Source: Protoeuglena noctilucae
Lineage: Eukaryota
Reading direction: 5' to 3'
Assembly (NCBI GenBank): GCA_958009085.1
Contig: OY253672.1
Span: 930,001 to 994,000, forward strand
DNA length: 64,000 bases
In this document: piece by piece, positions 3,721 to 60,713 of the stretch
Position numbering within the stretch: position 1 is the stretch's first letter
Layout of the letters: each line of letters begins with the position of its first letter
Translations under genes and position numbers: made by a program
Notes under the pieces: model-generated
The model's database searches: none
Seen by the model: the letters and a program-made list of their open reading frames with translations, nothing else
Told to the model about the DNA's origin: nothing

Positions 3721-5547
3721 TCACCTCTTGGCTCCCTCAGCGACCGCCGCGGCCTCGGCCTGCGCCTTCTCGGCCTGGATGCCCGCCACGAGGCCCTGGT
3801 AAGGGTTCCAGTCGATAAGGTCCATGATGTAGATCTCGGCCGCAGGGAGGGCGGCGGGCGAGCACCCCGCGATGTAGGCGAGGCGGGAGGCCTTGGTGAT
3901 GGAGCGCCGGTGCCCGTCGCACTTCATGGCGATCCAGAAGCACGCCGCCAGGGCCGCCACCACCGGGCTGCCCACGTCAATCTCGCAGAGCTTGGCGATG
4001 GCGAGGCGGGGCAGCACGCGCATCCAGATGATGAGCGCCCTGCAGAGCAAACGGCACCGAACCGCTCTCGCACGCGCCGCCGCCTGCCACGCTTCTGCAC
4101 TTCGCGCCCCCACTGCGCCGGCCGCACCTCTGGAGGACCTTGCGGCTGTTCATCCGACACAGGCAGGCCCAGGTGGCCAGGACCGTCACGAGGAGCCTCT
4201 TGTTGTTGGGCAGGAGCATCTGCAGCTGCTGGTCCAGCGACAACGTCGGCGTCGGCGGGCGGGGGGACTGGGCGGGACTGCGGGGGCGTGGCGGGGCGGC
4301 GCTGAGCCGCGGCGGGGCGGCGCGGAGGGTGAGAGTCGCGGCGACCGTCGCGGGCCTCGCCTGTTGGGCACGGTGGAGCCCTGGGACGCAGGGGGCACCG
4401 CGGAGGCACCCACGCTGCTTAGGGCCACAGAGGGGACCGTCACGGGCACGGGGGCGCCCGCCACCTGCCCGCCGGGCGCGCAGGGCCGGATGCGCACGGC
4501 CCACGGGCCGGCGGCGCCGACCTGCACGGCGCCCTGCGGGAGGGTCGGCGGCAGCATCCCGTAGCACGCGTACCCCGTCGTGGGGACCCCCGGGACCGGC
4601 ACGTGGCGGGCCGCCGGCGCGGGTGCGCGCGCCTCCTCCCGGACCGTGTACGCGGCCCCGGTCTTGGGCGCCTGCGCCTGCGCCTGCGCCGCCGGCGCCC
4701 TGGCTGGCACGCAGAACATGTCGATGAGCTGCTCGGCGATCTGCTCCTGGGACCTCAGAGGGGCCTTGTCCTGCGGCGGGGGTCGGCGGAGGACGAGCGT
4801 CGCGAGGCGGACGGCGCTGGCCACCGCGGCGCCACCCCTACTTCATCCAAGCGCGGCCCTCGCCTGGGCGAGGCCCTGGGCCGAAGCGACGCCGGGGCTG
4901 TCCCCGTCCGGAGAGCTGTCGAGGGCGTCGGTGGAGCCCGTGTGCTTGCTCGAGTCGTCCAGCGCGAAGAGGGGGTGGCCCAGCGGCTCGGTGACCCCCG
5001 CGCTCGAGGCGCGGCTGCGTCCCCTCGCGTCCTCGCCCGCGGCCATGCAGGACGACCGGGAGAGGCGGTGGCACGGCGGGCCGCCGAAGGACGCGTCCGG
5101 GGCGAAGAGCAGGCCCTCGAGGGGGTTGAGGTGGGGCGCCGGGGGCATGATCATGACCGGCGCGGGCGCGTTGCCCGACATCGGGCACGAGCCGGGCCTC
5201 GTGACGCAGCCGTCCTGGTACTGGGCCAGCAGGTCCGGGTGGGTGTAGGACGACACGTCGAAGGACATTGCCGGGTGGTACCCGGCGGGCGAGGGGCCCC
5301 CGTCGCAGTCGAGGCCGATCGTGGCCATGGAGCCGTACTTGCTGTGGAGGGGGGCTGCGCGGGGGAGCGGGCCGGGATTCCATTGGCGACTTGGCGAAGC
5401 GCTGCTAGCCACCGGGTCGCGCTGCACTGCGCCCCGCGGTCGCGGTCCCCACCGTACCCCGCCACGTGCTGCGGCCTCACCATGAGACCCCGCGTCCCCG
5501 GCCCAAGCGGGCCCGAGGACGCCGCCGTCGAGCTGCGGGTAATCCAT
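3721..5547 (-). CDS. Divergent cyclin-like protein with a long low-complexity N-terminus
   Basis: Last exons encode cyclin-box-like ALIIWMRVL...AALAACFWIAMKCD...AAEIYIMDLIDWNPY. They are joined to the upstream ORFs via introns, including GC-AG intron 4771-4863. Confidence 0.55.
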
Positions 5548-6764
5548 ATAGTCCCCGCGGGCGTGTTGCGGAGGCCGGCTACGGCTCCCGCGGGAAGAGT
5601 GCTGCTGGCTCCACGATGCCGGTGAAGCACGCGTGCTGGTTTGCCGGGGGGACTCGACGCGTCCGCGACGCCAGCAGCGGTGCCGACCCGGACTCAGAAC
5701 GTGGCGCGCATGTTGAGTAGGTAACTGACGCGGAACAGGGACTCAGCAACGCAGAGGTGTCATGCACTCCAGTGTCTCCAGCGCGGGACCTGCGAGCGCG
5801 GCGGGGCCGGCGCGGCGTGAGGGGCGGCAAGAGGCCCTGAACGCACCGCCGGCGGGCCGTCCTGCGTGCTGCGCCCCGCACGCAGGTCGCTCGGCCACGC
5901 CACGTCGGGGCGTCCCCCAGAAGCAACCGCCGCGGGCGCGACGCCGCGGGGACGCGGGCTCGGACAGAGGAACAAAAAAACCGACGTCCGGGCAAAGCGA
6001 GGGGCGGGGCGGAGCCCGGACGGGGCGTGGCAGCAGGTTGGCACGTCGCCAGACGACCGGGACGGCCGGGGGGCCCGACGGAAACGCGCGGGGGCCGTTG
6101 GACAACTCAGGAGGCGACGGGTCGTCCGCAGAAGGCAAGGGAACGGACGAGGGGGCTTGCCGACCCCGACCCACGAGAGCGACCGACGAGCACCGACTCT
6201 GGCTCCATGTGAAGAAGCTAGGAAATAACATGGCGTCACGCGTCGCGGCCACACGTCGAGAGCCCGCTCCGGCGCGACCCTTCGAAAAGTCCCCTCGAGA
6301 AGCCTCGCCCCGCCCGTGGGGCCGCCCCCACGGCTCTGGGAAGCCGCGCTGTCTCCCGGGGAGGCGTCGGAGGTCCCCGGGGCCGGCCCCGGGCGCCTCA
6401 CCCGGGTCGACCCCACCCCCCCCCACCCTTCCCGGCTCACCGTAGGGCGTTCTGGCTCCAGACGAGTAGCGCTGCTGGCTCGTATTAGCCGCAACAGCGT
6501 CTGTCAGGAGCTCGGGGAGGTCGTGCGTTGGACGAGCGCGGTGGGGGAGGTTTGCGAGTTCGCGCCAAGTGTGGCCCCGCCACGTATCGAGCCAAGCTAT
6601 GCTCCGTTCCACGCACAGAGGCCCGCGGAGCTCCAGCTGGCCACTTCAACGGCTCCGTTTTCTGGCAAGTTTTGCGGGGCGCCCGCAAGGGCGCGGCCCA
6701 GGGCCCAAGGCGGTGCGATACAACGAGAACGCAAGAAGAGTAAGCGCGGGCGGCACGCCAGCGC

Positions 6765-9497
6765 TCAGAAGCGCGACGTGTCGCGGCCGAAGAGCTTGGC
6801 GCGGAGCCAGTCCGTGGCGACAAGCATTTGGTTGCGCAGGGAGATCTGGGAGATGGTCTCGAACCCTTTCCACCCGAACCCCGCCGCGAGGCCCGTGATG
6901 GGACCTGGGAAGGCGCAGGGAGGCCGGGGGTCACGTCATCACGATCGCGCGCCACGCCAGCTCCGGCACGTCGCATCCCCGAGGCCCCCCGCCTGCTCAC
7001 CGATGACGGGGATGTCCATCACGGCGCGATCGTCCCCGACGTACGCTAGCTGCCCCTTGTGGTTGTACTGGAAGGGCCGGATGCCCGCGAGGGTGTCGTC
7101 CGTGCCTGTGAGCTTCGTCTCCCCCAGCACCTTGGCCAGGTACTCCCCCTGCTGCCTCGCGACCTGGGCGGTGGCGGGCAGGACGCGCAGGTTGCTCTCG
7201 ATGCGGCCCAGCAGCTCCTTGAAGTCGTCGAGCGTCAGGAGGCTCTTCTCGTCCAGGCCATCCAGCGTCTGCTTGACGCCGCGGGACCGCAGGAAGCCGG
7301 ACGCGAAGCCGCCGAAGCGGTCCGAGTTGGCGCCCAAGAAGCTCGCGTACTCCTGCGTGCGCGAAGAGGAGGGCGGGGGCACATGCAGGAGGGCAGCTGC
7401 GACAGTGTAAGCCCCTCGGCATGGGCCAGCTGCTTTGCCCCACGTACCTCGAGGTGCGGGTAGTCCTTCGAGGTCTCCAGGAGGATGTTCCGGAGCTCGA
7501 GGAGGGAGAGGCGGCCGTCCTTGTTGGCATCGCCCTGTGGGGATGCAGGGGATGGAGAGAGTTGTGGCGGCGCGGCCTGGACCTCACCCGGAGGCGAGCC
7601 CACGAAACACCGGCGGACGGAGGAGTGCGCCGTCCGCCGGCGAGACGCGCCCGCGTCCTGCTCTGCGCACCGCCTTGTCGCGACGGCCACGGTCGGGGGC
7701 CGCAGCGATGGTTGAGGCGCGCTGGCCTGGCCTGGCCTGGCCTGGCCTGGCCTGGCCGGCCCGTGTCGAGCCCTCGCCCCCGCCTCACCTTCTCGAAGAG
7801 CTCCTGGCACTTGACGAGCGCGCGGGGCTGCTCGATGGTGGCCACGTCGCCGATGGCGAAGATGCTGCCCCTGCTGCCCTTCACGCGCAGGTACTGGTCG
7901 GTGGTGATGGCGCGGAAGTTGGTCTGGGACCCCTCGGGGAGGCTCTGCTGCAGCTGCTGCGCCAGGGGGTTGAGCTTGATGCCCGTGCACCAGATGCACA
8001 CGCCGAACTTGAGCTCGCGTTTCGCCCCGTCCTGGCCGACCAGGCGCACGAAGTCGCGCTCCACGCCGGCAACCTTGGTGTTGAGGAGGAGGTCGATGTC
8101 GGAGCGGAAGAACTGGCGGGCCGCGTACTCGGAGATGCGCCGGTCGTACGTGGACAGGATGTGGTCCTGCAGCTCCACCACTGCGGCGCAGGAGGAGTCG
8201 CTCGTGCGCGTCGCGGCTGCGCTCGGCGGCGACGGACTCGCGAGTCTGCACCCGCAGGCGCCGGCCCTCACCGGAGATGCGGCAGTCGTCCACCAGGTCG
8301 CCGTACAGCTCGCGCATGTCCTCCCGGACCATGTCGCGCATCTCGGCCGCCACCTCCACGCCCGTGGGGCCCCCTCCCACAATTACCATCGACAGCAGCC
8401 GCTTGCGCTCCTCGGGGGGCGTGTGGGGCAGCGCAGCGCGCTCAAACAGCTCTGACACGCGCTGGCGCAGGCGCTTGGCGTCGTCAATGGTCTTGAAGAA
8501 GTAGCAGTTCTCCTCCACGCCCGGAGTGCCGAAGGTGTTGTTGATCGACCCCACGGCCACCACCAGGATGTCGTACTCGACCTGCAGACGGTAGGCGGGA
8601 TGTGGGGGCGTCGCGGCGCGCGCGCAACAGCAAGCGTCCGATGCGCCCGGGAAGTCAGCCGGGGCGCACCTTGAAGCAGGCTTGGTCGAGGCCGGCGTCC
8701 TTGGGGAAGCAGCACACGAGCTCCTCGCGCTCGGGGTCGATGCTCTGGCAGAGCGCCTCGTAGTACCGGCCCTTGCCCCGCACCTGGTTCCTGCGGAACA
8801 GCAAAACAAGCCGCGCGATGCACCGGTGCGCTCGCGTCGCGGATCGCGCAGCCTGACGGGGCGCGATCCGCCCGGCACCTGACGGGCTCCACGATCGAGC
8901 GGTCTTCCATGGTCCCCGTGCAGACGGCGGGCAGGAGGGGCGTGTAGAGGAAATAGTTGCGTGGGGAGATTAACACCACGTCGTATTTGTCGGAGGTCTC
9001 CTGCGGGGGGACGCGCAGCCCGTACCACCGTGGGGCCGGGAGCGCTCGGGGGTCACAGGCGGGTCCCGCGCGGGCGCTCCTGCCGCGCCTCACCTCCGTC
9101 AGCGCCTTCATCATCGACATAGCCCCCCAGCCGGACCCCAGGATGACCACCCGCGGCTTGGCGGTCTTTTTGGGTGGCGCAGTCCCCTTCGGCAGCCCGT
9201 CCAGCGCGGGCAGCCCGTTGCGGCTCCCATCCGTCCCCACCAGCTCCTGCGCGGGCGGAACGCCGTGTCAGGAGGGCATCCAGCTGCGAGTTTCCTGCGA
9301 GACCCTCGATCGCCGAGGGACGCCAAAGGTCGGAGCACCCCGCTCGCCTTCGTCTTCTGCGCCGCGCGCGCAATGCCCGATCTCCGCAGCTTCGTCCTCG
9401 TCATCCATGTGAGGCGCCCGTGCGCGGTGCGGGGCCGCTGCGCGCATCCATGGGCGAGCCGCGCTCCGAGGGCCCGGGCGGGGGCCGCCAAGTCCAT
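6765..9497 (-). CDS. Type II NAD(P)H dehydrogenase, EF-hand-containing (NDB-like)
   Basis: PRVVILGSGWGA, ISPRNYFLYTPLLP, IVGGGPTGVE, FAIGD, EF-hand DANKDGRLSLLE, LPATAQVARQQG, PFQYNHKGQLAYVG, C-terminus DWLRAKLFGRDTSRF*. Confidence 0.93.
7722..7757. repeat. (CCTGG)6 microsatellite in an intron of the NADH dehydrogenase gene
   Basis: Six tandem CCTGG units read directly from the sequence. Confidence 0.9.
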
Positions 9498-14296: not shown

Positions 14297-14454
14297 CTTC
14301 TCACATGCAGCATTCGCGCGCTATCAGACGCTGCCACCGACCGCAGCATGCGCCAGCGCGGAACTTCGCGAGGCGATGACGCTCAAGCATCGCCCCTGGA
14401 AACCTGAATGGCCACGGTGGCCCAGCATGCCAGAAGCAATGCCCCACGCGTGCC

Positions 14455-16334: not shown

Positions 16335-16962
16335 ATGATTAGGTATCTCCTACTCCAGAACAGGCAGGGAAAGACGCGGCTCAGCAAGTGGTACGTCCCC
16401 GTGACCGACTCGGAGAAGCGCGAGATAGAATACGACGTGCACCGCCTCGTGACCAAGGCGAGGGGCGGTGCGCTGGCATCGCTGACACAGGTAGACGCCG
16501 CTCGCGCGCCGGGCCGACCGGCCGACCCCGCGCGGCCCCCGCAGCGGAGCAAGTCCGCGAGCAACGTGCTCGAGTTTGGCAAGCACAAGGTGGTCTACAA
16601 GCAGTACGCGGGGCTCTTCTTCTCGTGCTGCATCGACCTGGCCGACAACGAGCTTGTCGTCCTCGAGGCGATGCACCTGTTCGTCGAGCTGCTGGACCAC
16701 TACTTTGAGCAAGTGTGCGAGCTCGACCTCGTCTTCAACTTCCACAAGGTTTACCTCATCATCGACGAGTTCATCCTCGGCGGGGAGGTGCAGGAGACGT
16801 CCAAGGTTAGCAGGGCGGGGCGGGGTGCAGGCTTGCTTCCCGCGGGCGGGGGACGCGGGGCCCATGCGAGCGGCCACCCATCCACGTGACCGATGTCCGT
16901 TGTGCGAGCAGAAGACCATCCTGGAGCGGCTGGTGGAGATTGATCGGACGGAGAAGAACTAG
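16335..16962 (+). CDS. AP2S1: AP-2 adaptor complex sigma subunit
   Basis: [59 protein letters not shown]. Introns 16458-16544 (GC-AG) and about 16807-16910. Confidence 0.95.
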
Positions 16963-16980
16963 ACGCGGGCGTGAGGTGCC

Positions 16981-18168
16981 ATGACGGGCCCCAACGTGGC
17001 GCCGACGGCGCCGATGGTGGCGGGGAAGCTCCGCTTCGGGGTGCACGCGTGCTCCGGGGAGGACCCCGACTACCCCGCGCGGGAGCTGCTGTACCACTCG
17101 GCGCACACGCGGGGCTGGCAGACCCCGCGTTTCTGCCGGTACCCCCAGGAGGTCGTGCTCAGGCTCGACCGCCCGGCGCGCGTGCAGCAGATCCAGATCC
17201 TGTCCCACGAGTACAAGATCACGCAGCGCCTCGAGATATTCGTCGGCGTGCCCCCGCCCGGCGAGACGGACCCCGAGCGGTGCTCCTTCCGCCGGCTGGG
17301 CCACCTCAGCTTCCACACCAATGAGAGGACCAACTACCAGGCCCGGGAGCTCAAGACCGTGCACATCAACGACCCCGCGGTGCTCATCAAGTTCGTCGTC
17401 AACGGGCCCCACGTCAACCAGCACAACGTGTACAACCAGGCACGCTGGCTGTGCCTGCTTGCTGCTGCAGCCCTGCCACCCCTCCGCGTGGGCGTTGAGT
17501 GCTCGCCCCTTCCGCACGCCCGCAGGTCTGCATCATCGCCATCAACCTCCTCGGCGAGCCCCTGCCCGCGCCTGCCCCCGGGGCGGCGCCGGGGGTGCCG
17601 GGTGTCGGGGCCATCGACGCGGCGGCGCGCGACTTTGCGCTGGAGATGAACGTCGACTCGGTGACGGCGGCGCAGATCCGGGAGCTGGCGGCGGAGAAGG
17701 CCCGGGCGATCGCGGAGGAGGACTACGACAGGGCCAAGGAGCTGAAGGGCGCGATGGACCGATTGCGGGAGGTGGGGCGCAAGGTGGCGCAGCTGGAGGC
17801 CAAGAAGCGCGCCGCGGTGGAGCGGGAGGACTACGACGAGGCCAAGGCGCTCAAGGAGGACATCGACAAGCTGCGGGCGGGCGGAGTCGTGGCGTCCGTG
17901 CCCAGGCATGCGCGGGAGGCGGGAGGGGACGTGCTGACGCGGCTGGCGGGGGCCCCGCCGCCGGCGCCGGGCGGGGCGCCGCCGGCGGACTTCGACGAGA
18001 CGCCCGTGGGCGCGGGGGCTGGCGGCGCGGCGCAGGGGTACGGCTTGCCGGAGGAGGGAGGATACCCGGCGGAGGAGGACGAAGACGGGCGGCAGATGCG
18101 GCGCGCGCTCAGCAGCAACGGCAACGGGGATGCGGCGGGCCGGGGCAAGGGGCCACTGTCGGCCAAGG
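16981..18168 (+). CDS. CEP104: Centrosomal/flagellar-tip protein CEP104 (FAP256-like), 5' part, cut by the assembly gap
   Basis: GWQTPRFCRYPQE, IQILSHEYKI, RRLGHLSFHTNERTNYQARELKTVHI, NVYNQ|VCIIAINLLG, then UVR-like coiled coil AIAEEDYDRAKELK...AVEREDYDEAK. Confidence 0.9.
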
Positions 18169-18368
18169 NNNNNNNNNNNNNNNNNNNNNNNNNNNNNNNN
18201 NNNNNNNNNNNNNNNNNNNNNNNNNNNNNNNNNNNNNNNNNNNNNNNNNNNNNNNNNNNNNNNNNNNNNNNNNNNNNNNNNNNNNNNNNNNNNNNNNNNN
18301 NNNNNNNNNNNNNNNNNNNNNNNNNNNNNNNNNNNNNNNNNNNNNNNNNNNNNNNNNNNNNNNNNNNN
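18169..18368. other. Assembly gap (200 N)
   Basis: Run of N characters. Confidence 1.
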
Positions 18369-20883: not shown

Positions 20884-23839
20884 TCAGACGAACGCCAGGC
20901 GCTGGCTCCCGACGAGGTCTGCGTACTCGCCCTGCAAGGCCAGCAGCTCTTTGTGCGTCCCCTGCTCGATGACCCGCCCCTCCTTCAGGACGACAATCTT
21001 GTCCGCACTCTGCACCGTGCTGAGCCGATGCGCGATCACCAGCACTGCGGGCAGGTGCGCGAAGGGTGCTCCTGGACCTCGTGGTCGTTCCAGACCAGTG
21101 CAGTTAGCTAAACGAACCTCGCGAGCTCACCGGTGCGCCCACGCTCCAGCCTCTCCATCGCCTCGTGCACGAACCGCTCGCTGACGGCGTCCAGGGCGGA
21201 GGTCGCCTCGTCCAGAATCAGCACCGGAGCGTCCTTGACCAAGGCGCGCGCCACGGCGATGCGCTGCCGCTGCCCGCCGCTCAGCAGCGTCCCCTGGGGC
21301 CCCACGACCGTGTCGAACCCCGCGGGCATGCGCGCGATGAACTCGTGGGCGTTTGCGGTGCGCGCGGCCCTCTCCACGGCCTCCTGGGAGCACTCGCCCA
21401 TGGCCCCATATGAGATGTTGTCCGCAATGGTGCCCGTAAAGAGGGCCGGCTCCTGCGTGACGAAAGCGACCGCCTGGGCCCACGCGGGCTTGCTGAAGGC
21501 GGAGACGGGCACGTCGCCCACCAAGACCTCCCCCGCGTCGGGGCGATAGAGCTGGGCGATGAGGGAGGCGATCGTGCTCTTGCCGCTCCCGCTCCGGCCC
21601 ACCAGCGCCGTCACGCAGCCCCGCTCGATCGTCAGATCCAAGTCGCGGATCACGGACACCTCCGGCCGCGCGGGGTACCGGAAGGACACCCCCCGCAGCA
21701 CGATGTCGCCCTCCTGCGCCGCACGCCGCGCCTGTGCCGCACGCCTGCAAGCGCACAAGACCGGGAGCGGTGGCTGGGCATGACCCCAAGCGGGGCATGA
21801 CCGGAAGCGCGCGTCACCTGCCCAGGTGACCCACCCACACCCCCACTCACCTCCGCGCCTCCGCGTTGTACTGCTCCGCAGCTCCCGATGCCATCGCCGC
21901 CGCCATGACCTCCGCGCGGTCGGCCAGCAGGCTCGTGGCACTCGACTCTGACCGAGGCCGCGGGCTCGCTCCGGAGCTCTCGCTCTCCGCTCCCTCCTCG
22001 ACACTCCCCTCCGGACGCAGGTGCGCGGCTAGGCGTGGGTCGCTCCACCGGTGCGCCCCCCGCATGCCTCGCACCACGTCCGTTTCAGGCGATGCGTTTG
22101 CCAGCACCTCCTGGATCCGCTCGATCGCGCCGCTGGCCTTCCTGCGCGGGAGACGCACGCGGAGATAAATACAAGCCCTTGTCATGTATGCTCATCTCAT
22201 GCAGCCCAGCGTCGTTCAGGGCTGTGCTTTGAACGCAGGCGCTCACCGGAGATCTCCGAGCGTGTTGGCCACGCCCTGGGTCGCGAAGCACAGTGAGAAG
22301 GTGAAGCCGATGCCGCTGAGGAGTGCACGCACCGGCATTAGGCCCCGGGAGACGAGGTAACCCCCCACAGCGAAGAGCTTCGGGCACAGAAGGCGGGGCA
22401 GAGGGTTCGCGCACTGAGCGCAGGCCTCCAGGTCCAGAGCGGGCGCGAAGGCGGATGCTCGCCCCGCTCACCAGCAGCAGCGACAGGTGGATGCTGCCGC
22501 GTATGAGCACCTCCTGGGTGGCTTTAGCCCCCAGGGCACGCAGACCCGTGTCAAAGGACGCCTCCACGTATGCCCCGAACCGCGCTTGCTCCAGGCCCTC
22601 CCCGGCGCACGTGCGCACTGCGGAGCAGTCAAGAGGTGGCAACGTGCCAACCGGCAGTGCTGGCGGGGCGCGTGTGCAGGTGGATGCCAAGCGGGCGTTG
22701 GGGCCGCCGCGCCTCTCCTGGCTCTCACCGGTCTTGATGGCTCCCAGGGCCTCCCCCGCCACGCTGACCATCTGCGACACCTGCCGTGCGTCCGATGCGA
22801 AGAGCGCCTTGAGGCGGCGCGAGTGCCGGGCCGCGACGACCCCCGACAGCACAATCACCGCCGCCATCGGCGGGCCCATCCGGGCGCTGAGCCAGACCAG
22901 GATGGCCACGCTGCCCACGGCCTCGAGCACAGCACGGAGCCCTCTGTCCCGCGAGGTGTTCCCGACCACCACGTCCCGCACCACCCCCAGCTGCGTCGAC
23001 ACCAGCGTCAGCAGCTCCCCCGTCGCGAACCGGTCGAAGAACTCCACCCTGCGTAGTACACAGGGTGACGTCCACGCCAATTAGTCCCGGGGTGCTGAGA
23101 TGCACGCCAGGGCTTCGCTGCCGCATCCGACTTGCGCCACTCGCCTGTTTCCCAGGAGGGCGCGGAAGAGGTCCATGCGCATCTGCGCGAGCGTGAGCTC
23201 GGCGACGAGTCCGATGCTCCGGATGTACACCTGGGTGAGCAGCGGCTCGACCGTGTAGACCACGGCAAGCGCGGCCCACACGCGCCAGTAGGAGTGCATG
23301 GGGGCAGCTGAGGCGAGGCTTTCGAACAGCACGCCGGTGAGGACAGGTGCTGCCAGGTTGCAGGACGCGCACACTAGGACGCTCAGGAGCCCGATGAGCG
23401 TGTGACGCTTATGTCGCAGCGCAAGCGACCACAGGTAGGCGCCGGAGAAGGGGCCATTCTCGGACCAGGCGGGATCCTCCTCTCCCTGGAACTTGGGAGC
23501 CTTCGCGTCGGCATCCGTGAAGCCATCTGAAGGGGGGCGCGCGCGGGCAGCGGCACCACGGCATGGGGCGAACTTCGGGGCCACATGCGCGCGGTCCAGG
23601 GAGGCCAGGGGCCCTGTCAGTTCCTCATGGAGATCCGTGAGCTTCTGCATAGCAGATGTGGGCGAGGTTGGCTGCCTGGCGCGGCTGCCTCTACGCGAAC
23701 GCGCAAATCGCGGCGCTTGCGGGCCTCCACTCACCCGCAGCCGTCCCTCCCCCCGCTGGAGGCGCCTCAGCCCAACCATACCCCCTCCGCATTTGATTCC
23801 GCTATCTGTGCAAGCCACTCTGCATCGGAGGCCAAGCAT
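20884..23839 (-). CDS. ABCB half-transporter (ABCB28-like, probably organellar)
   Basis: Transmembrane domain followed by a nucleotide-binding domain: [37 protein letters not shown]. Also [10 protein letters not shown]. Start codon uncertain. Confidence 0.9.
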
Positions 23840-34710: not shown

Positions 34711-37463
34711 ATGCTGCCGGAGCACGCCCCTTTGGAAGGGGTGATTGGCGTGTTCAACGAGGAGGGGAGCGCTCTGGCGCTCATCAGCCCAGATGGGCGC
34801 ATCACCCTGCACGACACTGGTGAGCGGGAGACTCGGGACCCTGCGGAGGCGTGGGCCGCGTTTGCCGGGGCTTCCCCCGCCCATTCCCTCTGTTGAACGT
34901 CGAATGATTGCACCGCATGTCTGCTTTGATAGAATATGCGCGGACGCGAGAGCATCGGCCGCCCTTTCTCCCGGACTGGAGACGGCGGGCCCGCCGCTGT
35001 CCGCTCGGGACCTTTGGCGCCGTGCTGAACCCCTGCGATTGCAATTTCGATACTTTGTCATGGATGGAGTGGGATAGCACTGGGACAGGGCCGCTCGGGG
35101 TTGCGCGACGGCCGAAAGTGGCTCCCGAGTTCCCCCTGGCGCAGCCGGGACCTCGGCCCCGGTCAATCTGGTGACAGCGACCGGCGGGATGGCGAACGGG
35201 GAAGGACATCTTGCCGACCAGTGCCAGTGCGCGGCGTGGGGGACGGCGGTGACGGCCAAGGGCCGCAGGAAGCAAGGCGAGGGGCAGCGCCGGCCAAGGG
35301 GCGCCCGTCGCCGCGGCCGGTGGCCGGCGGAGCTCCGCTGTTGCGTCCGTCGATCGCGTAAGCCTCCCTCCGCGTCCCGCTCGCGCAGTCCTGGCCGTGG
35401 GGCTGCAGTCGGGGGCTGTGCGCGCCTATGACGTCGACCGCAGCCGCGTCCTGTGGACCGCCCCGGAGTGCCACGAGGGCGGCGTCGCGTCCCTGGGCTT
35501 TTCTGTCGCAGACGGCGGCCGCTTCTTCACCTGCGGCCCGGACGCGCGCGTCGCGGGGCTCTCGGCGACCTCAGGCGACACGGCCGTGCAGTTCCAGGCT
35601 GGGTCCCGGGGCCTCACCGCCGTCTCTGCCAGCCCCGACGGGTCCCGCATCCTCGCCGCGTCCTCCTCCGTGGCCATCTACGCCGCGGACGGCACCCGCA
35701 CCTCAAAGTTCACCGGGCACCCCAACCCAGCATGTGCCGCCGCCTTCTCTCCCGACGGTGCTTACGCCGTCTCCGCCGCCAGCGGGGAACTCTCCGCCCT
35801 CGTTTGGGATTCCTTTCGCCGCAAGGGTGGTGCCCTCTGCGCCCTGCCGCTCCCAGCCCCGGCCATGCGCGTCTTCACCAGCCCACTCCCCAACCAATCC
35901 GAGGCATTTGCGTGCGGGGTCATTACCGAGGCAGGGGAGCTGCTCGTCTTCCGCGTGGAGCCCGGCGCGGGCCAGGTGCGCCCGCCGCGGCGCTCGCTTG
36001 GCGCTTCGCGGGTCAGCGTGGGCCCGACGGCGCCCGTCAAGGGGTGTGTCTCTGACACCGCTCACAGGTGCACGAGTTGGCGCACATCGCGGGGGCGAAG
36101 GGGAAGAAGGGCGGCAAGGGCGTAGTGCTGGCTGCGTCGCTGCGAGGCTCGGAGGTGCTGCTGGCCCACGGGCCGCCCATCCGCCCCACCATCGCCCGCG
36201 TCGCGTTCGAGCGAGGGGGCGAGCCTGTGGGGTCCGTGGCGCTGGAGGCGCGAGGGGGCGCGCTACTGGATGACAAGGGCGGCGTGAACGGTTCCGGGAC
36301 ACCGGCGGCCCAGGCGAAGCCTCGCAAGGTAGTGGCGGCAGACGGGGGCGATGAAACGGTGCGGGTGCGGCCGCCGCTTGACTCGCGGGGCCAGGCCAAG
36401 CGCGGGCGGGGGGAGTCGGAAGACGAGGGGTCGAGCGAGGAGGAGGAGGATGGCGGGAGTGGGGATGAGGGCATGGAGGAGCCTGGGACGTCGCCGGACG
36501 GGTCGGGCGCCGAGGACGGAGAGGGCGCGGGGTTCGGGGAGCGGGAGACGACGCTGGGGGAGCGGGTGGCGGCGCTGGAGGAGCAGTACGAGCGATTGGA
36601 GGGGGCGAGGCCTAGGGCGGCGGCGGAGGCCGGGGCGGACGCCGGGGCGGGGGCGGGGGCGGGGGCAGGGCCGAGCACGTCGCGGGCCGCGGAGGTCCGC
36701 GAGGCCATTCGGGCCGACTCTCTGAGCGTGCTGCTGACGCAGGCGATCCGGTGAGAGCGCTGGGGGTGAGGTTGATCTTGCCTGCGGTCATTGGCAAGCT
36801 GCCGGCAGCGACGCGCCAGTGCTCCCCCGCTTGCGCAGGGCGGGCGACCGCGCCCTGCTGGAGCGGTGTCTCTCGGTGGGCCAGAAGCGCGTGGTGACCA
36901 ACACGGTCCGCCGCCTGCTCCCCGCGGACGCCGCGGCGTTCCTCCGTGCTGCGGTGGCGCGGCTGGTGTCGCGGCCGCAGCGAGGGCGGCAGCTGACCAC
37001 GTGGGTGCGCGCAGTCCTGTCCCACCACGCGTCCTACCTCATGGCGGCTCCCGGCGCCCAGGCTCCCCTCGCGACCCTCTACCGCGCCATCGACGCGCGT
37101 GCGGCGTCCTTCCGTGGCCTCCTGTCCCTCCAGGGCCGCCTGGAGCTCGTCACCGCCGCGGTGCCTGAGGCTGCCGACGACGTGGACGTCGGGTGGCCCA
37201 AGGTGGAAATCGACGAGGCAGAGGCGAGTGCGGGACGGGGCAGGGCGACCTGGCGTGTTTTGCCAAGGAGTGAAATCACTTGCTCTCGCTGGGCTGACTT
37301 CATGCACTCACTGTCGCTGGGTCTTCAATGCGCGCAGTTGAGCGATGCAGAGCGGCTTGGCGATGACTACACCGAGAGCGACAGCGAATCAGGGGACGCG
37401 GCGACCTCTTCGGAAGACGACGAGGGCGACGGGTCTGAATCTGGGAGCGAGGAAGCCGACTGA
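34711..37463 (+). CDS. UTP5: WDR43/UTP5-like SSU processome protein (WD40 plus Utp12 domain)
   Basis: WD repeats (KFTGH, FSPDG), ADSLSVLLTQA, DRALLERCL, NTVRRL, WVRAVLSHHASYL, LLSLQGRLEL, acidic tail. Confidence 0.85.
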
Positions 37464-37639: not shown

Positions 37640-40078
37640 TCTGGCACCCCGTGGAGCGCCCTGGGCTGGTCTCAGAAGTCGTGAGGGCCTCCTTGACAGC
37701 CTTCAAGCGTCCGAGAGTGCTCCGGGTCGCCAACAGCTGCATCTCAGAGTTGGTGTCCATTGGGACCAAGGACGCCACTGGGAGCGGAAACCAGGGATGG
37801 AGTTAGGGAAGTGTAGGATGGTGCCGCCGCTGTTCACGCAATGCTGGTCAAGCGAACAGTGGCCAGCGTGGGGGACGCTTCATGTGCCACGTCGAGGTGC
37901 AAGCGGCACTCACCGAAGAGCCCGAGTGCCTCCGGTTCGTCGACAGAGGGAAGTTCCCTCAGCTGCTCAACGATCCTCCGCACGCCCGGCATCGACTCGG
38001 GCAGTCGCGCCAGCCGCGCACCGAAGTCCACCGCCAGCTGCCGCACCTCCTGCGCAGCACGAGAGAGTAGTGAGTAAAGGCCGCAGCACTGTCTCATTAT
38101 CTCGACCCGACCCTCCACATGTTGCCGAGCCCGTCCCATCCATGGCCCGCCCCTCTGCATGTTGACTCCGTCTGCCTAGAAGGCAGACCCGCTCCTCACC
38201 GCGCTGAAAGCCTGTATTTCGTTGGCCTCCTCCGCACTCTGCACCTCCTCGTCCGTCAGCGGACGGACCCGCCCCACACGGTAGCCGTCCAGCTCCCAGG
38301 ACTCGCAGACCACGATGCGGCGCACACCCTGAGCACGAGATATGCAACGCATTAAGTCAATCCATCCGGAGACGCTACAGCGAGGTGCGGATGCTTCAGG
38401 GAGGTTGCAGGGGGTGGTTGAGAGCCACAGCGCGGTGCGAACCCTGCGCTCGCCTTGATCTCCAGGTAGTACCTCCCGTCCGGCTGCAGCTGGCAGTCAG
38501 TGATCTCCACCTCGGTCGCAATGGGGTGCACCTTCCTTTGCACCTCCCGGGTCTCCCGCTCCATCACGTTCGTCATCACCGCCATGCCGAACCTCCGCGA
38601 TCCCTCCATGCACCGACGAGTCATCAACCGGTACCTGCAGCGACCACGAGTGGTAAGGAAGTCGCCCAACGGGCTCCCCACTCACTACGAAGCAAGTGCA
38701 CCGTGCATGGTGGGTGGTCCCACGCACGCCACTTCACACTGCAGCAGTCTGCCTCACCGGGGCTCGAAGATGTTGAGCGCGATGGTGGAGCCCGGGAAGA
38801 GGCACGACATGATGAAGAGGGGCAGGGTGATGTCCCCGGAGGCTGTGGCCTCGTCGGCCAGGCCGCGTGCAGCTGCGTGCTCCTGGGCCCTCTCGGCGTA
38901 CTCGTCGGGGAAGCAGGCGCGGAGGAGGTTGGCGAGGACGAGCGTGACGGGAAGCTGGGGCACGGGGAGAGGTGCGACGGCGGAAGGTCAGCGATGACGC
39001 GAGGTGTCGCATCCGAGGAACGGCGTAGAAGTGGGGCGCGGAGACGGTCTGAGACTGGCTCGCATGCAGGCCCCGCTCACCCGTCGCCCGGTGTGGAGGA
39101 CTGTGCGGCACAGGGGGCACTTGGGCTGGTGCTCGATGGCACGCTCGAAGCACTCGCGGCAGAACGAGTGACCGCAGGGAGTCGTGACGGGCTCGAACAG
39201 CATCTTGTAGCACTGCGGGCCACATGGCGTGGGATTGTGCCATCATGAACGCACATGCCACTGTGTGCGTTGCGCTGCGTGGGCCAGGTCGTGTTGGCGC
39301 ACACATCGCCGCGAGCAGCACGGCGACCAAGTGAGCATCCAGCCACGTCAGCACGAAGTGCCACTTGCCACGGTGCAGTCAAAGTCCTCGGTTGGCTCCA
39401 CGCGCCGGCGCTTGCTCGACGTGCGAGACAGGCTCGGCTGTCCCGGGACTTGGCTCGGGGCCTCGGGCGCAGGCCCTGGCATCTCAGCCTCGCTGAGGCG
39501 CTCGTCGATCGCTCGGAGTCCCGCTGCCAGCTCGGCGTCGGTCGGATCCAGCAGCATGCCCTCGAAGAAAGCCTCTCTTGCGCCTGTGTAGTCCTCAGCG
39601 AGGAAAAGCGCCGCGGCCTTGCGATGGTATCCCCTGGCACTGTCGGGTTCCAAATGAAGGGCTTTCTCCGCGTCCTTCAGGGCCAGCTCGGCTATCTGCG
39701 CGGGCGGGGCTTTCGTGCATTGCTTGCCGACCTATCGTCGCTAGCGTCGAGCCATGCATGCGTCCCAGTGGCGCGAATCGCTGCGGCGAGCGCATCGCTG
39801 CGTACCTGGGTAGGATCCTGCCCAAAGAGTGCATTGTCCTCGCTGTGCGACGCCGGGCGCATCCGCAGCGAGTAGCTCATCGAAGCGAAGGCCGCGGATC
39901 GGTTGCGGTGCACCAGGGCGGCATGCTTCCCCTTGCACGTGCGCAGGAGGGCCGTGTACTCGGCGATGGCTGATCGGTAGTTGCCCTCCACCAGAGCTGT
40001 GTCCGCAGTCGTGGACGGGGCGTCCGTGTAAACCTCTGGGGTTTTTTGGAGAATTGCATCCATCTGAGACTCCTCCAT
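37632..40078 (-). CDS. TPR + RING + LON substrate-binding domain protein (LONRF-like E3 ligase)
   Basis: TPR (ALKDAEKAL), RING DFDCTV|CYKMLFEPVTTPCGHSFCRECF...CPLCR, LON-N LPLFIM...LNIFEPR|YRLMTRRCMEGSRRFGM. Ends CQMM*. Confidence 0.9.
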
Positions 40079-46617: not shown

Positions 46618-47521
46618 ATGTCGTCCGCTGCCCCGGCCCTCGCGACGCCAGGAGGGCGGGCTGCCGCATGCGCGCTCGCCAACCCCGTCAGGGCCAGGAG
46701 GCGCGCCGCAAGGCCTTGCCTGGCCGCGTCTGCACGAGCGGAGCGGTCGAAAGATGCGGGAACGAGCGCCCAAACAAGCTCCCAAAGCGCCCCCGGCCTG
46801 CTCACGATGGCGGAGCTGGGGGAGGTGGCGGCCCGACGGGGCGTGCAGCTGAGGGTTCAGTCGTGGGGCCCGCTCTTCCGCATCACCTTCACGGAGCGCG
46901 GGCGGGACGTGGAGCTGGGACTCATCACCGGGTTCACGGTGCCCTTGCTCGGCCTCGTTCACTTCGAAAATATGCTGGTGGTGAGCCGTGCAGCGCGGCC
47001 ATGCGCGGATGCACCTGCCTGGCGCACATGTGTGTCGACGGGACGGTCACTGGCCCGCAGTTCAACTCGCGGATGCGCGGCAAGGGAGAGATGCGGCGAA
47101 ACGCCCTGGGCCTGGGCTTCCTGGTGGGGGCGGCGGGGATTGTCTACGGCCACGAGCGGGGGTGCACCAAGGCCGAGATCCTGGCCATCAACGACGACCC
47201 CACCCAGTTCCGAAAGCTGGTCAGGCAAGGGGCCGCGTGCACACATTGTCGCTGCGTGGGCCGCCGACCCTCCCGGTGCCCCTCATCCTGAGGCCCCGGT
47301 TGCCACCACCCAGGTATTACGAGCGTTTCGGGTGGGAGCCGGTGAGGGAGGTGACGGGGGACACCCTCGCCGACCTGCCGCACATGGTGGTGTGGGGCGG
47401 TGCGGGCATGCGCATGGACGCGGACATCGGCCGCATGATGAGGCGGTGGAGCAGGGCCGTCGCGCTCTCCGCAGCGACGGGAAACATGCCGACGCAGCCA
47501 CTTGAACCGGAAGAGTGCTGA
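46618..47521 (+). CDS. Conserved plant/algal GNAT-like protein of unknown function, probably plastid
   Basis: Transit-like N-terminus, GPLFRIT, GCTKAEILAINDD...KLVR|YYERFG...LPHMVVWGGAGMRMDA. Start codon uncertain. Confidence 0.65.
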
Positions 47522-47537
47522 GGGGCCCGGCCGCACC

Positions 47538-51935: not shown

Positions 51936-52059
51936 ACCGCGGCAAAGGAGGGTTAGCTCGAGGGCGTGCAAAGGCAGCACGGCGACGCCAGCACAGCACG
52001 AGGGGCGCACGTCTAAGCTGCTAGTGCTGGGCATGCAGGGCAGCGCGCCAGTGAGGCTC

Positions 52060-53942: not shown

Positions 53943-55310
53943 ATGAACGACGCCGACGGGTGGAAGAAGGTGGCCCTGTTCATGGCGGAACAGACGGAGA
54001 AGTGAGAGCGCGTGAAGTAGGCCTACACACGGCGGGCGTCCTCCGCGGCTCGTGCTTGACAACAGCGCTTTCAAGCGGCCTGGTTCAATAGAGCCTCGCT
54101 GGGCGTGGGGTGCGAGGGGAAGGGCATCTCATGCACCGTGCACCGCCTCAGGTTCGCGTCCAAGCTCGCAACGGCGGTCCGCGAGTACGTGAACAAGGGC
54201 ACGAGTCTCAAGTCGGTCATGGAGGGTGAAAAGCGGGGTCGCAAGCGGAAGGTGAGGGGCGAGACCGGTTGCCGCCCCGAGCTCAACAACGGCCACTGCG
54301 CGCGCTCCGGGGGACCCTCGCGCCTGAACAGCGCGCCGGGTTGACGATATTGCGTGTCGTATCTTTCTCACCCCGCGAATGTCTCTTCTCATCCGACGAC
54401 GGCCGCGCCACGCCCCTGAACCCTGCAGAACAAGGACCCGTCCAAGAAGCGCGCCCCCACCGACTACAACCTGTGGATGAGGTGGAAGATCTCGACCCTG
54501 AAGGCAGACGAGGAGACTCAGTCCAAGGTGGGCCACCTTGGCGTCGCGTGGCCCAGGTATCGCGCCCGCTCGCAGCTGTGCTTTCGAAGCCACGGTGAGC
54601 CCCTCTGCGCAGGGGAATCCCAACTACGAGAAGTCCGCCCACAAGCTCGTGTTCAAGGAGGCCGCGGAGGCATGGAAGCAGCTGAGCGAGCGGGAGAAGG
54701 AGGAGCAGATGCAGAAGGCTAGGGTGAGAGCATCTGCGGGCGGAGCGTTGCAAGCCCTGTGGCCGTGTGACACGACGCGGCGAGCCGCTTCCCGTCGTGG
54801 CGTTGGCGTTCCCAGAAGTTCACGGAGGAGCACGACCACGAGATTGAGATGCACACGGTGGGCCACGAGCGCGACGAGGAGGTGTCCACGCACGGGGCGG
54901 GCGACGACGACGACGAGGACGACGAGCCGACGCCGGAGCCCGTCAAGAAGAAGCCGAAGCAGGCGAGGGCGGGAGCGCGCGGGCCGTGGGGCTGGTCGCG
55001 CGCAGGGGCGTGGTGCGCGAGACGGCAGGCACGGGGTCGGTGACGCGCAGGGTGCTGCGGTGCTGGGGCCGGTGAAGGCTGCGAAGAAGGCCGACGCGCA
55101 CGGGGACGCCATGCACGTGCAGAAGAAGAAAAAGGCGAGGCTGTGAGCTCGTCGCGGGTGCGCGCATCGCGTGGCGGAGGCTGAGGCGTGCTGCACGCCG
55201 CCCACTCCTGCATCGTGCTCCGTTTCCTACAGAAGCACAAGCACGACAACGAGGGCGTCACGCCGACCAAGAAGCACAAGAAGAAGCACCACGCGGGAGA
55301 CGAGTCCTGA
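53943..55310 (+). CDS. HMG-box protein with acidic and Lys-rich tails
   Basis: KDPSKKRAPTDYNLWMR...HKLVFKEAAEAWKQLSEREKEE, acidic DDDDEDDE, terminal KKHKKKHH. Confidence 0.75.
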
Positions 55311-55611
55311 GCCTGCCTGGGGTGCCATGTGGGATGCGCAAAAGCGCGTGATGATGTTCAGGGGTCAGCACTGCTTGAGCATGCGCCGCACGCCATGGCG
55401 TGCTCGACTTCCCCCAGCTCCCAGTCTAAGTATCTGACACGAAAACGGCACGCCTAGGACAAATGTACCAAACAGTCACGCGAGCCCTTGTGCGCAAGTT
55501 GACGGCCTGGCTGGCACACATCCGCTTGCGTCACACTGCATCAGGGCCTCCTTCCTCCGCAGCCACAGTCTTGTACTGTGCGTTGCTGCGCCTGGCCCGC
55601 GGCTCTGCGTT

Positions 55612-57886
55612 TCAGGAAGCAGGAACGCAGTAGACTCGTCTGCATCCCTGCGCCCGCGGGTGGCCCATGCAGACGCGGCACATGCGCCCCTTGCCTCTGC
55701 CCTCGCCGTTGGCGGCATGCCCCTGTGGCTTGGCCGGCAGCGCCCGGCGCTTGGAGTATACGAGCGCCATCCCGGCCAGGGAAAGGCAGCCAGCCGAGGC
55801 TAGGAAGAAGAGCGGAAGCGTGAGGGAGGAGCCTTGCTCGACAATCACGGGCGACAGCGCTGGGTGCGGGCCCTCCGCGGCCGGCGGCAAGGTGGACGAC
55901 CGGGGCGTCTGCGGAGGGCGACAGGGGCGGGAGAGAATGGAAGAACTGAAAAATTCAGAAACTGATGCCTGCCAGGTGACACGACGTGTAGCCTCCACCA
56001 AGCCCGCGCCCTCGCCTCGGCAGGTGCTCGGCTCTGGATCTTGGCCCGTACCTCGGCCGGGATGCCGGGGTGGTCGGGCAGCATCGTCACCAGGTGCAGA
56101 AGAGCCTTCGTCCAGCGGTTGACCTCCCGGGTCTTCCCCGCTTGCGTCGTGGGGTTGAACATCCTGCGGGGCGCGGGGCGGGCAGCCAGAGCGCGTCAGC
56201 TCTGCCGGAGCCCATTGCAAGAGCATCCGCAGCAGCCCAGGGGTCCGCCCATCACCGGAAACACTCGTGGAAACCGGCATCGAAGTCGCCGTAGATCTCC
56301 CACGTGCTGACGAACGGCACGCGCTCCTTGGCCCACATGTGGTCCGTCGCAGTCCCATGTGCCAGGTACCCCACCGTCTTGCCCCCAGGCCCCACCAGGC
56401 ACTCTCCCGGGTCGCACACCTGCGAGGGACCAGCAGCGACAGTGTGCGCTTCGTCACGCCAGCTACCTGACAAGCTGCGAGTGGGTCATGGCATCAGCGG
56501 GTTGCCCCCGACACACCTTGGAATTGATCTGCTCTAGGAGCTGTAACTGAGCGCGGGCGTTCTCGTCATCTGGAACGACGGCCAGGTGGTCGTATGGCGC
56601 AAACATGGCGAACATGCCGCTGTGTATGTTGACGAAGGCGTGGGGCTTGAACTCCCGGACTGCGACAGAGAGACGGCAACAGCGCTGTCTCCTGCCCGCA
56701 CGTGCGGCAGCTCTCGGCAACAGCGGGGCTCGCCGCTCACCCAGCGATAACGTGAGCGCCGCCTCGGGCTCGGACAGGGGTTTTGTCCCCGGGTACTCCT
56801 CTGAGGGGTTGTAGTCAGGCTCCTTGACGCCCCAATCCACCTCGTAGTTCCGGTTAATGTCCACGCCGCGCCCGTTCTTGCGCTCGCAGGATTCGTTGTT
56901 CTCCACCTGCAAGACGGTAAGACGCGGCCGCGTCGGGTCAGGCGCGCCGTCGAGGGTGCCACCGCGGGACGTCCGCTTCAGCAACACACAAGCAAAGCGA
57001 GCCGTGCAGGGATGCCCGCGAACGAGCCAGCGAGTCACCTTCTTCCTGCCGTTCACGTTCTCCATGGGCAGGATGAGGAAGGACGCGTGGGGCAGCACGG
57101 CAGCCAGGCTGTCCGCCTCCTCCTCCGTCAACCCCAGCTCAGCCCGAGCCCTGGCGGGGTCCGTCAGGGCGTCCAACAACGCAAGCCCGACCTCAACTGC
57201 AAGAGGGGCAACGCGCAGGGGTTCTTGCTCAGCTTCAAGCCCTGCGTCAGGCCTCCCCTCGCTGGCAGGGCCGCAGACACACCTGTGAGGACCTCACGCG
57301 CATGCTCCCCGAAGACGACCATGACTCGTATCTTGTTCTGGTCGGCCGCGTTGATTCCCGCGGGCCGCACCCGCACCACCGGGGTGACTGTGGTGTAGGC
57401 CTTCCCATCCGTCGAGGTGCGCGGCACGAACTCGAGCGACACCGTCCCTGCGATTGTGGCCACGAAGGGCCGCCGGTCACTTCGAGGGAGTCGTCAGCGT
57501 CACCGCTCGCGCACCGGGCGCGCGGAAAGCGCCGCCGGCGCGACGCATTGCCGCGCACCCGTGTGCCGGTCTGCCCAATCCTCGAGGCGGTCGAAGACGT
57601 CGCGGGACTTCATGTAAAGGTTCCAATCCACAAGAACCGTGCCCAACAGATCCCTCCCTGAGAAAGCTGCGCCGGACGACGCGTCCTCGGCGCTCTGCCT
57701 CGTGCGGCGCAGGGCATGGTCCCCCCCGACGCGTGGTGGCTCGGCAAGGGCGCCCGCGCCTGCAGCTGAACGGGAGATCGACGACGTCGTACTGCAAAGG
57801 TCGCTGCGATGCATGTCGACCGCAATAGGGCTGTTCTCACCTAAGAGCGCTGCAACGAGAACCACGCGGAAGAGCCGCCGTCCCAT
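55612..57886 (-). CDS. Zinc carboxypeptidase, M14 family (signal peptide, C-terminal hydrophobic anchor)
   Basis: FGEHARE, ERKNGRGVDINRNY, YPGTKPLSEPE, VNIHSG, GYLAHGTATD, TWEIYGD. Confidence 0.92.
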
Positions 57887-59365: not shown

Positions 59366-59399
59366 CAGCTTCCGTGAAAGCCTGCGGCACGTGTTTCCT

Positions 59400-60713
59400 T
59401 CAATGCCGCTCTAGCAAGTCCGCCACGCCAGCCAGCTCCCCGCTCCGGAACCTCCGGAAGCGCACGCTTTCAAATCCCAAAGACAGCAATTGTAACACCA
59501 CCTCCCCGGCCAACGCACCGCCGGACATGGAGGGACTTGCCCGCCCGCCCCCCGCACCCCTCTCCACCGCCACCTCCCCAGGGCCCCACGACTCCCCGTC
59601 CCTCGCGCCAGCCGCTGCCAGAGCGCGAGGCTCCAGCGCCACCTCCGCGGCCCCGTCCGCCACGACGCGCACCCGGAACGCGTCGTGCGGCCCCAGTCCG
59701 AGCACGGAGGCCACGGCTGCCTCCGCCTCCTCTACCAGCCCCAGTCGCGACGCGGTGGCGGGGACGCCGAGGGCGAGCCGCGAGCGCAGGCATGGCGATG
59801 CCGCCCAGTCCCAGTTGGGCAGCCCCGCGGCCCGCGCGCACGCCCGCACGGCCGACTTGGACAGCGGCGAGAGCGGGGAGAGCACATCCCAGTCCCTGGC
59901 CGCCACGAGCCCCAGGCGGGAAGGATCCCTGAAGACACGACGCTGAGCGGCATGTCACGGGATGGTCGAGTTGGCAGCGACGCAGGCGCCGCCAATGGCC
60001 CGTCACAGCCGTGCTCGCCTGAGGTCGTCTGCGTTAGTGCCGTTGACCAAGACCACGGAACGGAGATGTGTTTGGCCCTCCCCTACCGACGACGACGAGC
60101 TTGGTCGCTCTGCGGCCGCAGTGTCACTACCCGCGAGCGCCGCCCTTGCGACGGCGTCCAGGGTGCTGTACAGCTCCGTCTTGCACACGAAGCACGCCTC
60201 CCCGTCGTTCGTCACGTACCGATCGCGCGAGCCCTCCGCCGTCGGGACCTCGGAGAGCTCCAAGCCCATCGACGCCGCGACTGCGTGGGCGCGAGTGCGC
60301 TGCAGTGCCGACAGGCTCGGTGACACTCCCAGTAAAGCCTGCGTCGAGAAAGCCGGGGCAGGGTCGCGGACGAGACGAAAAGCTGCGCGTGGTGCGGAAC
60401 GACAACACCGGCGTGCGCTCACCCGGACACGGCTAGTCCCCAGGGCCTGGCAGCAGAGGTGGAGGGCTAGCGTCGAGTCCACGCCTCCCGAGAAGGCGAC
60501 GGCTGCGAGAGCCCCGTTGGCAGTCCCCGTGCTCTCGAAAGACGCTCGTAAGGAGCACACCAGGGCGTCGAGCAAGGCCCGCGCCTCGCCCTCCGCGTAG
60601 CCATCCGCATCGGTGCCCGGGAGGGTCACCACCTCCCCGCGGCTGACAGCCTCCAGGAAACGGTCGCGCTGATGCTGCACGTCAACTGACACGCTGTCGA
60701 AATCTATGTGCAT
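59400..60713 (-). CDS. larE: LarE-like PP-loop ATP-dependent sulfur transferase
   Basis: VAFSGGVDS, NDGEACFVCKTELY, NGTNADDL|RDPSRLGLVAA, SPL...SKSAVR, WDWAASPCLRSRL, RVR. Confidence 0.8.
59491..59495 (+). terminator. TGTAA poly(A) signal candidate for UPP, lying inside the antisense LarE-like CDS
   Basis: First TGTAA downstream of the UPP stop. Confidence 0.5.

Follow-up and report, generated by a model that had tools for sequence, protein, structure and literature searches.

Introns with a GC donor average 1.2% in plants (PMC6310983), and their share is weakly correlated with genome GC content (PMC7072748). Several algae lie well above this value. Iwata and Gotoh (2011) reported GC-AG shares of 22.2% in Micromonas pusilla, 7.7% in Chlorella sp., 39.6% in Aureococcus and 2.7% in Micromonas RCC299, with a canonical U1 in the GC-AG-rich algae, and termed the origin of the trait an enigma (PMC3033335). 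In the pelagophytes Aureococcus and Pelagomonas, 14-17% of introns are GC-AG, which was ascribed to high GC content (bioRxiv 10.1101/2024.10.30.620910), and in Emiliania huxleyi GC is the majority donor (56-65%), with about 4% GA (PMC4028052). A stricter context of GC donors is also known (PMC11732430, PMC2490688). Here we report on GC-AG introns in a 64-kb stretch of Protoeuglena noctilucae DNA (positions 930,001 to 994,000 of contig OY253672.1, our contig C5; hereafter the window), for which a sequence-only reading had listed 13 GC donors and proposed a GC-AG share far above 1%.

The GC-AG introns of the window are real, and the genome is a new example of a known trait of GC-rich algae, not a new splicing system. 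Like the algae of Iwata and Gotoh, chlorophytes included, it combines a GC-rich genome, a GC-AG share well over 1% and an unchanged U1 5' end (AUACUUACCUG), but it belongs to a different class, being a pedinophyte by a one-gene tree. Its GC-AG share nearly equals that of the pelagophytes, which are unrelated heterokonts and intron-poor, with fewer than one intron per gene versus about 5.8 here. Emiliania resembles it in its GC donors, canonical AG acceptors and mis-modelling by GT-first gene finders; however, Emiliania has a GC majority and GA donors, whereas here GC stands at 13-15% and GA at background. Mammals and land plants (about 1% GC-AG; PMC2490688, PMC6310983, PMC11732430) follow the same compensation rule of a stricter consensus with -1G and +5G, yet GC-AG introns are about tenfold commoner here and C is in the majority at the strongest donors. 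The context rule and the within-genome effect of GC content at third codon positions (GC3) measured below were not found in the accessible text of PMC3033335. Literature searches, with most subscription journals outside their reach, returned no prior GC-AG report for any pedinophyte, and a term search of the main text of the genome preprint of pedinophyte YPF-701 found no passage on splice sites. The trait had been supposed lineage-specific, which does not hold, as M. pusilla and Chlorella, both chlorophytes, are also on record with it (PMC3033335). The abundance of GC-AG introns is useful for annotation and not surprising to a specialist.

GC-AG introns in the window

All 13 listed donor coordinates begin with GC on the given strand. 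Ten read AG/GCGAG (the slash marks the splice junction), one AG/GCAAG, one TG/GCAAG (39368) and one AG/GCACG (17440), so that the tight AG/GCRAG consensus that had been claimed covers 11 of the 13. The bare motif AGGCGAG occurs 24 times against 19.2 expected under an order-3 Markov model, which is not above chance; with this count near background, the GC introns were tested by other data, namely RNA, protein and a gene model. At p >= 0.5 the gene model placed 136 introns in the window, 16 GC, 119 GT and 1 GA. It gave each of the 13 listed donors a posterior of at least 0.96 and added three GC introns (donors 4360, 55694 and 56015). The 16 introns are listed below in window positions, with donor and acceptor sites on the stated strand.

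4278..4360, minus strand: GC-AG intron, donor 4360 CAG/GCGAGG, absent from the first list; gene model, p = 1.0; retention shifts the frame
4771..4863, minus strand: GC-AG intron, donor 4863 CAG/GCGAGG; gene model, p = 1.0; retention gives an in-frame stop
9247..9347, minus strand: GC-AG intron, donor 9347 AAG/GCGAGC, 5' of Pyr_redox_2 exons; gene model, p = 0.99
16458..16544, plus strand: GC-AG intron of the AP-2 sigma gene, AAG/GCGAGG, 87 nt; protein colinearity; gene model, p = 0.99
17440..17525, plus strand: GC-AG intron of CEP104, CAG/GCACGC, at YNQ/V; colinear with all 24 aligned homologs
23049..23144, minus strand: GC-AG intron of an ABCB transporter gene, CAG/GCGAGT; ABCB8 colinearity; retention gives a stop; gene model, p = 1.0
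35277..35388, plus strand: GC-AG intron of a WD40/Utp12-domain gene, AAG/GCGAGG; gene model, p = 1.0; indirect RNA end at 35387
37224..37337, plus strand: GC-AG intron of the WD40/Utp12-domain gene, GAG/GCGAGT; RNA contig X4 record 19 links 37221 to 37336
38329..38453, minus strand: GC-AG intron of a TPR-RING-LON gene, AAG/GCGAGC; RNA joint in three of four runs
39213..39368, minus strand: GC-AG intron splitting the RING CxxC, GTG/GCAAGT; RNA joint in three of four runs
47225..47313, plus strand: GC-AG intron, CAG/GCAAGG; gene model, p = 1.0; indirectly, two RNA contigs with ends at 47311
54963..55050, plus strand: GC-AG intron of an HMG-like gene, CAG/GCGAGG; gene model, p = 1.0
55135..55232, plus strand: GC-AG intron of the HMG-like gene, AAG/GCGAGG; gene model, p = 1.0
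55605..55694, minus strand: GC-AG intron, GAG/GCAAGG, absent from the first list; gene model, p = 0.86, with an alternative GC donor at 55706 (p = 0.14) and no in-frame GT within 45 nt
55909..56015, minus strand: GC-AG intron, GAG/GCGAGG, absent from the first list; gene model, p = 0.98
59929..60018, minus strand: GC-AG intron of a LarE-like gene, CAG/GCGAGC; gene model, p = 0.96; retention gives a stop; LarE likeness weak

Junctions seen in RNA and protein

RNA contigs from four public marine metatranscriptome runs of one study were placed on 35170-55160, a stretch selected because it holds seven of the listed sites and therefore not an unbiased sample. In run X1, 31 of 47 contigs matched the window DNA at >=99% identity. 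Seventeen joints were read (15 of 46 as listed, plus two from contig pieces), and after strand correction they comprised 14 GT-AG and three GC-AG introns (38453, 39368 and 37224), with no GA or GG donor among them; these being assembled contigs, intron retention is not measurable from them. At 39368, where a GC donor had been proposed to split the RING CxxC, the exon after the junction begins at RING model position 4-5, and the RNA bears the proposal out. At 35277 and 47225 the RNA shows the acceptor side only, with contig pieces that begin at 35387 and 47311, fitting shared AG/CAG ends. The joint at 54963 falls outside the 17 read, and the intron at 55135 extends beyond the end of the RNA stretch.

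Protein comparison decided further junctions. Splicing of CEP104 at 17440 gives YNQ/V and is colinear with every one of the 24 homologs aligned, out of 67 matches; neighbouring GT donors would remove or add residues, in keeping with the view that YNQ/VCII forces this GC donor. Splicing at 16458 takes out exactly 29 codons relative to AP-2 sigma (residues 1-41 = 1-41, 74 = 45). The 87 bases of this intron (16458-16544) are in frame and stop-free, so that retention would insert 29 residues, and the intron at 37224 is likewise in frame and stop-free. The ABC junction at 23144, also held to be forced by protein, is colinear with ABCB8 (164 = 127, downstream residue 2 = 132) and its retention gives a stop, but the upstream match is weak (E 0.64).

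For donors 4863, 9347, 54963, 55135 and 60018 the evidence is the gene model, with posteriors of 0.96-1.0. The junction at 60018 stands on this basis and on the stop that retention would bring, while the LarE label is weak (E 0.05); similarly, retention at 4863 gives an in-frame stop, but Pfam did not support the cyclin-like label in the exons searched. The GNAT-like label at 47225 failed in the same way, and the HMG label is weak (E about 0.01). The donor at 9347, which had been offered as possible in an NDB gene, lies upstream of Pyr_redox_2 exons and was called at p = 0.99.

Outside the window, the second intron of the U1C gene (L064:1872-2029, contig C1) is GC-AG, with donor AAG/GCGAGC. 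The spliced model equals database protein P0068, encoded on a 2.1 kb contig, over 203 residues, and the identity spans the GC-AG splice. A METTL16-like gene also has a GC-AG intron (L121:1906-2066).

Genome-wide share of GC-AG introns

The assembly comprises 26.3 Mb in 27 contigs, of which 814 kb (~3% of the genome) was sampled as training blocks (600 kb from six contigs), four held-out blocks and the window. The gene model was a self-trained two-strand hidden Markov gene finder with the second intron base free (A/C/G/T), in which GC, GA and GG donors had equal priors and one shared matrix; introns of untranslated regions lie outside it. In the 'loose' setting, every non-GT donor was scored with a looser GT matrix. 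At posterior >=0.9 the training 600 kb yielded 939 GT, 173 GC, 2 GA and 1 GG donors with the shared non-GT matrix, and 917, 154, 1 and 1 with loose scoring. Over the 814 kb, loose scoring at p >= 0.9 gave 1389 distinct introns (1202 GT, 184 GC, 2 GA, 1 GG). The modelled GC share is therefore 184/1386 of GT+GC, or 13.3% (95% confidence interval 11.5-15.2%), and a GC-specific matrix gave 211/1458 (14.5%). An additional 15 small loci had 13 GC among 61. The model estimate thus agrees with the expectation of a share far above 1%, at 12-15%. Blocks with more than 40 introns ranged from about 8 to 20%.

Two artefacts were considered and rejected. That the GC donors are a by-product of a GC-rich genome (nuclear GC content 0.63-0.68 across 11 blocks) was dismissed, as GA and GG at the same prior and matrix reached only 3/1389, and the log-likelihood of 34259 for GT+GC dropped to 32509 with GT donors only, to 32601 with GT+GA and to 32607 with GT+GG; putting GA or GG in the place of GC thus loses about 1650 log units. 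A circular consensus was dismissed because the signal persists with non-GT donors scored on the loose GT matrix. The fall of about 1750 in log-likelihood when GC donors are disallowed also upholds the warning that GT-only gene finders would mis-model these genes. With about 5.8 introns to a gene, 13-15% of them GC, roughly half of genes would have at least one GC intron, and many gene models of a GT-only annotation would therefore contain errors.

The model recovered 12 of the 17 RNA introns at >=0.87, including all three GC introns. The five missed were all GT (three not in the output, two at about 0.45), and because the 14 GT RNA introns seeded the starting matrices, GT sites in the window are tested with less than full independence. 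RNA-supported spliced genes at 51900-53600 and 48100-49700, both on the minus strand, have introns poorly scored by the coding model (five misses), and the frames tested matched no Pfam family. Codon use in these genes may be unusual, or some of their exons may be non-coding.

Donor context

Context counts omit five duplicate introns, the three GA/GG calls and contigs C26 and C27. These two contigs (C26, 45 kb, 38% GC, locus L143; C27, 101 kb, 33% GC, locus L144) showed no intron in the 10 kb examined and are probably organelle genomes.

GC donors have a stricter flanking consensus than GT donors, with -1G at 184/184 and +5G at 182/184 under loose GT-matrix scoring. The GC share was 157/399 (39%) in the context AG/GYRAG, which makes up 29% of donors and is called permissive below, against 27/987 (2.7%) elsewhere, and it reached 36/45 (80%) at MAG/GYRAGT. 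GT donors form two classes, with exon AG or with +4A, that are anticorrelated (odds ratio 0.33, p = 6e-19), whereas both signals occur together in 160/184 GC donors versus 341/1202 GT donors. In a logistic model of the permissive context, the odds of C were raised by -3C (z 4.2), -3A (z 4.5), +3A (z 2.4) and +6T (z 5.5), and also by local GC3 (z 2.5) and intron GC (z 3.1). By GC3 tercile, the GC share in this context was 28, 41 and 50%. The 80% of C at MAG/GYRAGT does not differ from the intergenic ratio GCGA/(GCGA+GTGA) of 0.71 (p = 0.25). With GCRAG, the GC donors differ from the U12-type motif; a search run without positive control covered U12 small nuclear RNA (snRNA) and gave no match.

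It had been suggested that recognition of the 5' splice site is relaxed. GC donors are indeed frequent, but the relaxation is not general, because GA and GG do not rise above background and GC is restricted to the strongest donors.

Spliceosome components

The sequence-only reading had pointed to variant U1 or U6 snRNA that would pair with GC donors. One U1 gene was found, with the canonical 5' end AUACUUACCUG, and U6 has the canonical ACAGAGA. The U1 score lies below the Rfam cut-off (65.9 versus 69.5 bits), but its deviations are located in stems. The DNA search gave one U1 copy and the U1 loop pattern eight matches, among which a U1-like 5' end is found in that gene alone; these searches score best candidates only, and the assembly contains gaps. 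In U5 loop 1 (GCCUUUUAC) and in the U2 branch-pairing motif (GUGUAGUA) the sequence agrees with the consensus. No support for pairing by a variant snRNA was found; the idea is refuted at the DNA level, and we regard it as extremely improbable. U1, U2, U5 and U6 each gave one match, and U1 (C20:523585) and U5 (C20:547394) lie 24 kb apart on the same contig.

A change in U1C, the other component named in that reading, has more in its favour. LUC7 and METTL16-like genes are present, and the residue-level comparison covered U1C. Against the 119 closest listed homologs, out of 431 matches and mainly from land plants, S11 occurs in 0/119, F12 in 5/119, L18 in 0/119 and L28 in 0/119, and in the human U1 small nuclear ribonucleoprotein (snRNP) residues 11 and 12 of U1C contact the 5' splice-site backbone (PMC4383343). 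On the other hand, yeast U1C likewise has S11 and L18, Picochlorum U1C is variable at 11, 18 and 19, and alanine at these positions left the growth of yeast unaffected (as cited in PMC4383343). The unusual U1C residues are thus a lead only, with a possible effect on GC splicing.

Origin of the GC donors

The abundance of GC-AG introns probably reflects T-to-C drift at +2 of the strongest donors under GC-biased substitution. We consider this the best explanation because C at +2 is nearly confined to donors with both the exon AG and the +4A/+5G signals, because the snRNA pairing motifs are standard and because the share climbs with local GC. On this view the introns would belong to the usual major-spliceosome class and have undergone a T-to-C change at +2. 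The A-C mismatch of +2C with U1 would be offset by full pairing elsewhere, with U1, U5 loop 1 and the U6 ACAGA box, so that selection against +2C would weaken as donor strength grows. At the best donors +2 would be close to neutral and would drift to a GC-biased equilibrium, with GC-biased mutation or gene conversion filling these sites. The genome-wide share would then approximate the permissive fraction (29%) multiplied by the probability that such a site has C (39%), with a small residual share on top. The U1 snRNP binds +2C better than +2A (PMC4383343). Human GC donors require -1G and +5G, read as cooperation of U5 and U6 (PMC11732430), and neutral fixation of GC donors in strong contexts has been proposed for mammals (PMC2490688).

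Several observations weigh against drift under GC bias as the whole account. Micromonas RCC299 has 2.7% GC-AG at 64% GC, versus 22% in M. pusilla at 66% (PMC3033335), so that GC content alone is not a predictor of the trait. A chlorophyte-like locus of 71% GC (L118, one 17 kb contig) has GC at 0/10 permissive donors, scored with a model trained on another genome, which suggests that GC content does not suffice. The 80% of C at MAG/GYRAGT lies above the ratio of 0.59 inside introns (p = 0.004), so the comparison with neutrality hinges on the chosen reference. The held-out C19-C23 blocks have 23/221 GC donors (10%) against 15.5% in the training blocks, and the genome-wide share is itself a model estimate from 3% of the genome. 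A permissive trans-acting change may also be needed besides drift.

Such a change is the content of a second explanation, in which a lineage-specific alteration of a spliceosome protein or of RNA modification, for example in the U1C zinc finger, made +2C less costly and GC bias filled the sites. The U1C residues described above, with the yeast and Picochlorum counterexamples and the restricted homolog set, bear on it in both directions; the wide spread of GC-AG share among GC-rich chlorophytes speaks for it, and Iwata and Gotoh pointed to proteins of the U1 snRNP or to modification of bases (PMC3033335). We consider it less probable, though a serious candidate, and it is compatible with drift at strong donors, as both can hold. 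A more specific form, which we think rather unlikely, is that the spliceosome is blind to T versus C at +2 when U5 and U6 both pair, by a trans change such as U1C S11/F12/L18/L28. If this is true, what divides GC-AG-rich algae from their poor relatives would be such a change rather than GC content by itself, and the 'enigma' posed in PMC3033335 would be answered.

The literature leaves open the question why 10-60% of introns are GC-AG in some GC-rich algae but not in their close relatives. The present genome is a clean test case, with single canonical snRNA genes, a C gradient from about 0% to 80% with donor strength and a local GC3 effect. The question splits into two measurable terms, the fraction of permissive sites and the share of C within them, which can be compared across species.

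Intron anatomy

GC donors might instead be kept by selection because weak sites permit regulated retention of introns or alternative splicing. GC introns occur in the U1C, METTL16-like and AP-2 sigma genes, and intron retention is heavy in Emiliania (PMC4028052). However, at a GC share of 13-15% most intron-rich genes hold a GC intron by chance, and those of the U1C and METTL16-like genes are accordingly what chance would give. Furthermore, GC is commonest at otherwise strongest donors, GC introns are not clustered along genes (p = 0.69), and intron lengths divisible by three are not enriched among them (30% versus 32%). Median intron length (110 for GC, 112 for GT), acceptors and the rate of branch motifs do not differ between GC and GT introns. 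Selection for regulated retention is consequently improbable in our view.

Lineage and intron positions

A CEP104 tree with 25 rows places the window together with Pedinophyceae sp. YPF-701 and three other proteins (100/99), so that by this one gene the organism groups with the pedinophytes. Relatives were sampled as 55 metagenome loci. In the closest, L066-L068, the order of AP-2 sigma and CEP104 in window 12000-19000 is kept, and L067 also has the genes of window 12-14 kb. These loci are too intron-poor for a rate (about one GC among 5-6 introns in L067), and against about 5.8 introns per gene here this indicates strong intron gain or loss in the clade. Two GA donors were called in them; one proved to be a misplaced GT donor and the other looks shifted from an adjacent GT.

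The CEP104 intron at YNQ/V is absent from L066-L068, and L067 also lacks the AP-2 sigma intron. Because its syntenic relatives are intron-poor, intron gains in the lineage are possible, and the GC introns could be copies of a mobile intron (introner) family with a GC donor. Yet all-versus-all blastn of 1071 introns from the 600 kb gave 10 matches, six of them identical pairs resembling one duplicated gene, and no repeated intron family, with GC donors or otherwise, although old, decayed bursts would escape detection. Moreover, orthologous intron positions were compared, as had been proposed: at YNQ/V the loci L073, L114-L116 and L118 have a GT intron and L072 a GC intron. The CEP104 GC donor thus occupies an old intron position, as distant eukaryotes have an intron there, and an introner origin of the GC introns appears very unlikely. 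The locus L072 (583-683) comes from an unrelated organism of 52% GC and has the identical rare donor CAG/GCACGC at this site, where the related L073 has GT.

Other observations in the window

No tRNA was found in the window. A run of 200 N at 18169-18368 is an assembly gap within CEP104. At 37300-37780, 45300-45500 and 47300-47900 the window has tightly spaced convergent genes, and single RNA contigs, which are uninformative on whether the transcripts overlap, span their opposite-strand 3' ends.

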